The notes beneath the pieces were generated by a model, which worked only from the letters and a program-made list of their open reading frames with translations, made no database searches and had not been told where the DNA came from. The translations under genes were made by a program, and so were the position numbers. A DNA stretch of 64,000 nt from Escherichia coli (GTDB lineage Bacteria; Pseudomonadota; Gammaproteobacteria; Enterobacterales; Enterobacteriaceae). This document shows positions 22,228 to 22,509 of this stretch, piece by piece; positions within the stretch are counted from its first letter, which is position 1; each line of letters begins with the position of its first letter. The DNA lies in NCBI RefSeq assembly GCF_001677475.2, contig NZ_CP015229.1; one strand, 5' to 3'.

Positions 22228-22509
22228 ATGATTAAAGACAGCAAAGCGGAAGAACTGGAGGCTAAAGGGCTGTACCGGAGAGCGGCGGCACGTTGGGCTG
22301 ATGTTATGTGGCTGGTGAGCACTGACAAGGAGCGCGAACAAGTGGCAAAGCGTCGCGCGGAATGTATCCGTAAGGCAGCACGCCCACCAGTCATACCGGA
22401 TAATTTCGGAATACTGAAAGAGGCCATAAACCGCACACATACCGGGATGGGCTTACAGAAGCCTGGCGGTGAGATGTTCAGGAACTACCCGAAAAAAGGG
22501 GATAATTGA
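22228..22509 (+). CDS. PerC-family transcriptional regulator (Pch-like)
   Basis: N-terminus MIKDSKAEELEAKGLYRRAAARWADVM matches PerC/Pch-family regulators. Confidence 0.55.
   Translation: MIKDSKAEELEAKGLYRRAAARWADVMWLVSTDKEREQVAKRRAECIRKAARPPVIPDNFGILKEAINRTHTGMGLQKPGGEMFRNYPKKGDN

Follow-up and report, generated by a model that had tools for sequence, protein, structure and literature searches.

The gene at positions 22228-22509 on the plus strand of the window, the 64,000-nucleotide stretch of Escherichia coli DNA analysed here (NZ_CP015229.1), is confirmed by sequence comparison as a genuine member of the PerC family, with a likeness far beyond chance, and within that family it is placed on the PchE (group 3) branch and not on the PerC/PchABC activator branch. 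The gene, called perC here, is carried by a satellite with the architecture of a capsid-forming PICI (cf-PICI), in which it is shown to be a dispensable, promoterless cargo cassette between ssb and an 82-aa open reading frame (ORF) of the replication-module operon. The explanation that we favour, and hold to be on balance probable, is that of a PchE-type cargo regulator which is made from a hyp-ssb-perC polycistron, acts in connection with H-NS and has a PchE-like outcome for surface structures, adhesion and motility.

The ORF runs from an ATG at 22228 to a TGA at 22507-22509 (282 bp, 93 aa, from the ORF list and its translation). Both the ORF and the N-terminus quoted in the sequence-only reading, MIKDSKAEELEAKGLYRRAAARWADVM, are present exactly as written there, and a GAGG ribosome-binding site (RBS) lies about 8 nt 5' of the ATG. 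A GTG start at 22216 in the mechanical ORF list was rejected, since MI(K/R/H)D is the N-terminus of all homologues and the RefSeq annotation of strain KFu019 has this 282-bp gene as well. The Pfam PerC model (PF06069) aligns over positions 1-89 of its 90 with residues 1-89 of the protein (E = 1e-35, 122 bits), a near full-length match that, together with the conserved motif columns, bears out the resemblance to PerC/Pch proteins that had been noticed from the letters alone. PHROG 994 matches with E = 3e-42, several PHROGs labelled transcriptional activator match more weakly, and protein-database clusters 97-99% identical to the window protein already carry the name 'PerC family transcriptional regulator'. 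Ten columns are invariant in an alignment of 37 family members (L10, E11, G14, R17, R18, A19, R22, W23, C46 and G75), all of them kept in the window protein, and the core residues G14, R17, R18, A19, R22, W23, C46 and G75 are also invariant in a 9-sequence alignment; both alignments take in EPEC PerC, PchA, PchD and PchE. The protein likewise has the build expected of the family, which is about 90-105 aa long, helical and devoid of a recognisable DNA-binding domain. PADLOC returned no match for perC or for seven neighbouring small ORFs.

The position within the family was resolved with EPEC PerC (pMAR2), PchA, PchD and PchE of O157 Sakai and EcCIMP1_025 of E. coli MP1 as reference proteins. 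The window protein is 60% identical to PchE, 48% to PchA, 48% to EcCIMP1_025, 44% to EPEC PerC and 40% to PchD; alignment to PerC/Pch proteins had been named as a check by the earlier reading. In a neighbour-joining tree, 197 of 200 bootstraps place PchE closest among the tested references, and the PchE clade, which holds the window protein, stands apart from both the PerC/PchA clade and the PchD/EcCIMP1_025 clade. The group 1 form is not matched, as the window protein lies on a separate branch and, with its 93 aa, is without the C-terminal tail of PchA (104 aa). PchE itself (ECs1588 of EHEC O157:H7) belongs to the same Pfam family and branch, but it has 90 aa and is just 60% identical. It is also less similar to PchA (39%) than the window protein is, which makes some activator-like behaviour of the latter possible.

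With PerC (BfpW, on pEAF/pMAR2 of EPEC) and PchA/B/C (on lambdoid prophages of EHEC) the window protein shares the Pfam family, the motif G-x-(Y/W)-RRA-x-x-RW, the conserved Cys and a location on mobile elements. Their settings differ, PerC being the third gene of the plasmid operon perABC and PchA lying near the lysis genes of a lambdoid prophage, whereas the window gene is on a satellite. Their functions differ as well: PerC and PchA/B/C activate LEE1, whereas the PchE branch is without appreciable LEE1 activation (PMC6265319). EcCIMP1_025, from the classical PICI EcCIMP1, is likewise a 93-aa accessory cargo protein of an E. coli satellite and has been shown experimentally to silence LEE1 in C. 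rodentium (Pick et al. 2025, PMC11773190). However, it is encoded at the far end of a non-capsid-forming PICI, whereas the window gene follows ssb, and it sits in an ANR-like clade.

The carrier satellite spans 15.4 kb on the plus strand (14710-30125) between two 7-nt TCACGAA cores at 14710-14716 and 30119-30125. These cores were assigned on the basis that joining the flanks there restores the intact 585-aa TerL ORF of the surrounding HK97-like prophage, the halves of whose terL lie at 13689-14716 and 30119-30855. The early genes encode a tyrosine integrase, two AlpA-type proteins, a BRO/anti-repressor, a YlcI/YnfO protein and a RepA-type helicase; the middle consists of an 83-aa hypothetical protein, SSB, PerC, the 82-aa ORF and a convergent 157-aa ORF; and the packaging genes specify a major capsid protein, prohead protease, portal, head-tail connector, HNH, TerS and TerL. 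Among the ORFs and PHROG matches of 14710-30125 there is no tail or lysis gene. A relative that is 95.6% identical occupies the same site in NZ_CP027447, and its RefSeq gene names agree with this list. With int, alpA, iterons, its own packaging genes, a length of about 15 kb and att cores, the carrier is, on its gene content and sequence, of the capsid-forming PICI architecture. Carriage on a mobilisable satellite, as originally proposed, thereby agrees with the gene content, the cores and the relative, the mobility being predicted. The parts of the cf-PICI preprint drawn on here (Alqurainy et al., bioRxiv 10.1101/2022.09.08.507074) describe the same gene set, no tails and about 15 kb, and they give experiments on AlpA-dependent helper induction and on transfer in own small capsids with helper tails only for EcCIEDL933.

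Site-specific insertion into a prophage terL is a more unusual feature of this locus than perC. The flanks derive from terL in all IMG/VR relatives with the same integrase (at least 93% identity; at least 13 loci) and in strain 2014C-3075, and satellites with other integrase types have no terL flanks. The insertion knocks out the packaging enzyme of the prophage, while the satellite brings its own TerL and needs only tails. Satellites that integrate inside prophages are the subject of a preprint cited in the consulted portion of de Sousa et al. The terL of a resident prophage, into which this lineage integrates, is not a site met in the cf-PICI descriptions consulted, and no account of satellite insertion in prophage terL was found in the consulted portions of the literature on satellites and cf-PICIs. 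Inside each satellite end lies one copy of a 21-nt direct repeat, GTGTATTGC-N-CTGTGTATTGC, with one mismatch (14847-14867 and 30023-30043), at a distance from the nearer core of 137 nt on the left and about 80 nt on the right; the two copies are probably arm-type sites, predicted for the integrase or for AlpA/excisionase. An 11-nt match at 14857/30033 was rejected as an att core because joining there fails to restore terL.

The same arrangement may have left a trace in reference profiles. The C-terminal third of the integrase gene (14891-16108) matches the end of PHROG 9 'terminase large subunit' (positions 690-811 of 812, E = 5e-25), probably because this profile took in chimeric gene calls across the int-in-terL junction, and the overlap could mislead annotation. 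As to the host, none of 5,426 complete E. coli genomes exceeds 98.4% identity to the chromosomal flank with the hya and app operons (52500-64000), and in none does coverage of the satellite reach 80%. In IMG/VR, contig L056 encodes products 100% identical to the window integrase, SSB, 82-aa ORF, 157-aa ORF, capsid and TerL. It appears that the host represents an E. coli lineage absent from the complete-genome set.

The perC gene is embedded in a compact plus-strand unit. Its first gene encodes the 83-aa hypothetical protein (21539-21790, 84% identical to Sakai ECs1586) and is followed by ssb (21787-22212; PHROG 44, E = 1e-37; TIGR00621, 63.6 bits and above the cutoff), which adjoins perC on its 5' side. 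A 15-nt leader (22213-22227, plus strand) separates the ssb stop from the perC ATG. The last gene, which forms the right border of the slot, is the 82-aa ORF (22555-22803; PHROG 1957, function unassigned, E = 2e-36). Behind it, a terminator scan identified a strong bidirectional hairpin resembling an intrinsic terminator (22810-22835) with a 10-bp stem and a T-run on the plus strand. Upstream of the unit, between the RepA-type helicase gene and the 83-aa gene, repeat analysis and comparison with Sakai and H1 revealed an iteron cluster (21332-21535) in which at least six copies of AAAAGTGGGG, in both orientations, surround an AT-rich centre; to judge from the repeats, this is a probable origin of satellite replication. 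The promoter of the perC transcript would, by analogy with Sakai, lie in the same region. A consensus scan of 21300-21540 found no sigma-70-like promoter, and the window does not preserve the sequence of the Sakai pchE promoter.

The slot between ssb and the 82-aa ORF exists in several states. IMG/VR was searched with the satellite capsid protein and the loci were scanned with a PerC HMM and tblastn, which yielded 33 loci, not de-replicated, with the same ssb and an intact slot; a PerC gene occupies 12 of them, a ProQ/FinO-family gene 15, and the remaining 6 are empty. Alignment of PerC, empty and ProQ slots delimits the perC insert as the ORF, the 15-nt leader and, behind the ORF, some 45 nt of trailer extending into the RBS of the 82-aa ORF. 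The leader carries the GAGG RBS only and has no room for a promoter; the cassette is promoterless. No related locus lacks the 82-aa ORF, be its slot empty or filled with PerC or ProQ, and the closest complete-genome relative of the whole satellite has ProQ/FinO in the slot. As the replication and packaging modules are otherwise the same across these states, perC is cargo and not core machinery.

Further observations concern the surroundings of the slot. Across the loci compared (L009-L068 and L001 equivalents), the interval corresponding to 22213-22554 is three-state, being empty or holding either PerC or a gene for a ProQ/FinO RNA chaperone, and PerC and ProQ/FinO genes also adjoin each other on IncK2/Z plasmids and in several E. 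coli chromosomes. A lower-GC stretch (43%) separates the terminator from the capsid operon and contains the convergent 157-aa ORF (22841-23314, minus strand). Searches of Pfam, PHROGs, NCBIfam and PADLOC returned nothing for this ORF, which only 4 of the 33 related satellites possess. Proteins homologous to it, 156-158 aa long, make up a small orphan family in Enterobacter, Serratia, Raoultella, Rouxiella and Edwardsiella; the gene for one is located in a PICI-like island, that for another in an island rich in toxin-antitoxin genes. The 157-aa ORF is a second optional cargo gene.

The closest described parallel is found in O157. There, pchE lies in Sakai Sp7 / OI-51 / CP-933C, which is EcCIEDL933, the prototype cf-PICI (the OI-51 gene list with PchE is given by Flockhart et al., PMC3378721). 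The Sakai Sp7 order ECs1586-ssb-pchE-small ORF-capsid is identical to the window order hyp-ssb-perC-small ORF-capsid, and this order, together with the 84% identity of the first gene, makes the window gene the positional counterpart of pchE. The two elements nevertheless differ in their other modules. EcCIEDL933 in Sakai has a primase and, matching this different initiator, TAACCCGCA-type iterons, whereas a RepA-type helicase and other iterons are found in the window satellite; EcCIEDL933 is integrated between roxA and phoQ by a different integrase, whereas the window satellite sits in a prophage terL; and in Sakai a terminator-like hairpin directly follows pchE, whereas in the window the terminator follows the 82-aa ORF. 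In O157, 5' RACE places the start of the pchE transcript 10 nt upstream of ECs1586 and thus defines a polycistronic ECs1586-ssb-pchE RNA (PMC7369912). Steady-state expression of pchE is low (PMC7369912) and is reduced by SOS induction (PMC6265319, PMC7369912).

Published work on relatives indicates what such a protein may do. PchE barely affects the LEE (PMC6265319). Over-expression of pchE strongly represses csgD, curli, biofilm and HEp-2 adherence, represses eae and lpfA1, lowers stpA and induces flhDC, fliC and motility, phenotypes that come mostly from plasmid over-expression in one O157 strain (PMC6265319, PMC7369912); ler is raised about 2-fold (PMC7369912). For PchA, Fukui et al. found that activation depends wholly on silencing by H-NS/StpA/Hha/YdgT, that PchA leaves LEE1 less occupied by H-NS, both in vivo and in vitro, and that it binds to AT-rich sequences in H-NS regions (PMC4764244). 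An unpublished observation, as cited in that paper, is that an interaction between PchA and H-NS was not detectable.

The available data are compatible with a model in which, by homology with O157, perC shares a hyp-ssb-perC(-orf82) polycistron that would extend from the iteron/origin region to the hairpin at 22810-22835. On the same grounds, the integrated satellite would supply the protein at a low steady level. The arginine-rich three-helix N-domain of the protein may then act on AT-rich, H-NS-bound promoters or on the silencing complex, in the manner of PchA, and the outcome would be PchE-like, with curli and adhesins down, flagella up and the LEE not switched on. As such, the protein would be a regulator of the lysogenic-conversion type that benefits the host of the satellite and would not be part of the packaging or transfer machinery. 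The sequence-only reading thus keeps its family assignment and its satellite carriage, whereas its third element, the activation of chromosomal virulence genes, finds no support in the form proposed: the window protein is on the PchE branch, and PchE represses csgD/curli, eae and lpfA1 and induces flagella.

Distribution, selection and structure further describe the gene. The allele is full length in 34 of the 5,426 complete E. coli genomes, a number that rises to 51 when partial matches are counted; all are chromosomal, and the hosts include swine ETEC, avian and river-water strains as well as EAEC 042. A dN/dS of about 0.2 (0.18-0.27), both against close alleles and against pchE, indicates that perC is maintained by purifying selection. 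Near its 3' end, an A-run at 22492-22497 has six A's in the window and eight in some otherwise near-identical alleles, whose C-terminus reads ...KKKGIIDNGC (98 aa) in place of ...KKGDN (93 aa); the run may be a slippage-prone tract. An AF2 model built from 37 sequences (mean pLDDT 76.9) has helices at residues 5-13, 16-29, 33-50 and 60-73, the first three with pLDDT near 88, followed by a disordered tail. A PDB sequence search gave nothing below E = 1 (best 1.4), and the best Foldseek matches of the model in the PDB were MIT-like three-helix bundles at E 0.88, which is not significant.

Other explanations have to be weighed against this model. The first is that the protein serves the satellite life cycle, either by relieving satellite genes from xenogeneic silencing once they have entered a cell or by turning on genes of a helper or resident prophage, such as those for tails. 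The genomic setting lends this some appeal, with perC in one unit with hyp and ssb beside the origin (co-transcription being known from O157), a satellite that interrupts the terL of a prophage whose tail genes lie downstream, and the lower-GC (43%) stretch directly downstream, ahead of the capsid operon. Moreover, PerC-domain proteins are common in temperate phages, and PHROGs file them as transcriptional activators. However, of the 33 related satellites, which have the same replication and packaging modules, 21 carry ProQ/FinO or nothing in the slot, and PerC is therefore not required for replication, packaging or exploitation of a helper. SOS induction, furthermore, lowers and does not raise O157 pchE expression (PMC6265319). 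We consider a life-cycle role unlikely.

Somewhat more doubtful still is that the protein is a true PerC/PchABC-like activator that de-silences the LEE1 (ler) promoter and effector genes in LEE-positive strains. This possibility draws on the Pfam family and conserved motif shared with PerC and PchA, on identities to PchA (48%) and PerC (44%) that are both above those of PchE, and on an ANR score that is the lowest of all proteins tested, next to that of PchA. Over-expression of pchE did raise ler about 2-fold (PMC7369912), and Fillol-Salom et al. (2018), who described PerC alleles on E. coli PICIs, state that some PICI PerC homologues activate the LEE (PMC6092414). On the other side, the PerC-like genes of EcCIEDL933 and EcCICFT073 have no effect on LEE1-lacZ, as cited in PMC11773190. 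The window protein clusters with PchE and not with PerC/PchA, and most of the listed carriers are isolates from swine, birds or the environment or belong to ETEC or EAEC. These carrier pathotypes normally lack the LEE. Activation of the LEE therefore cannot be what selection maintains in them.

Slightly less probable again is an anti-activator of the ANR type, as proposed for EcCIMP1_025, which would bind AraC/XylS-family activators or H-NS and damp virulence regulons. The ANR family (e.g. Aar of EAEC) and the PerC family both consist of small helical regulators linked to H-NS and virulence regulons, and all PerC-family proteins tested align, over about residues 5-52 and in constant register, with the full 54-position ANR model NF033650. 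The PerC N-domain hence looks like a distant relative of the ANR module, to judge from this alignment. In the window protein, residues 6-52 cover the whole model, and the AF2 model has a three-helix N-domain. EcCIMP1_025, at 48% identity, represses LEE1 (PMC11773190), and this perC allele occurs in EAEC 042, where Aar, an ANR protein, was defined. The scores, however, form a gradient. With the curated NCBIfam cutoff of 32 bits applied to nine proteins, the relative P0096 reaches 32.5 bits and EcCIMP1_025 31.1 bits, followed by EPEC PerC (18.2), PchE (17.9), PchD (16.2), PchA (13.6) and the window protein, which at 12.5 bits (E = 0.1) is the lowest of the nine; this sub-threshold match is its sole match in NCBIfam. 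By the curated cutoff, the window protein is thus not an ANR member and is at the non-ANR end of the gradient. The tree also puts it far from the clade of EcCIMP1_025 and P0096, and it has an additional 40-residue C-terminal part, with a fourth helix, outside the 54-position model.

A more speculative extension, to which we give little weight, is that the slot after ssb is a dedicated exchange site for global regulators, filled with a PerC anti-silencer, a ProQ/FinO chaperone or nothing. Its product would be expressed from the transcript of the replication module during integration, and its target, perhaps other than the classical virulence genes, could be silenced genes of the resident prophage (e.g. 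those for tails, which a capsid-forming satellite has to borrow) or programmes for phage receptors such as flagella and curli. Finally, that perC is a decaying, non-functional remnant is highly improbable: close alleles come in two C-terminal variants owing to the A-run, the N-terminus is disrupted in one relative (L047) and there is a cluster (P0107) of truncated, 54-aa 'PchE', but the window ORF is unbroken, has an RBS and matches the Pfam model over its full length, its dN/dS against close alleles and PchE is 0.18-0.27, and all invariant family residues are kept.

Much of the framework for these results is already known, as the gene type, its carriage on PICIs and cf-PICIs and regulators moved by satellites have been published (2012, 2018, 2025), and PerC-family regulators are common in Gram-negative PICIs according to Pick et al. 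(PMC11773190). The idea that carriage of such a gene couples host regulation to satellite spread, which the sequence-only reading had put forward, is likewise in print (PMC6092414, PMC3378721, PMC11773190), and activation of chromosomal virulence genes is not the best-supported function for the window gene. The additions made here are small and comprise the three-state slot, the promoterless cassette, the tree placement, the PerC-ANR register, the purifying selection and the terminator.

Were the protein truly PerC/PchA-like, the arrival of this transferable satellite in a further strain could activate attaching-effacing virulence there. The available evidence leads away from LEE activation, and by analogy with the PchE branch it is curli, adhesins and flagella that would most likely be affected. 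A database entry named 'PerC family transcriptional regulator' should, as such, not be taken to mean 'LEE activator'. Taken together, the findings are of modest value in that they place this allele on the family tree and characterize it as promoterless, dispensable cargo in a slot shared with ProQ/FinO.
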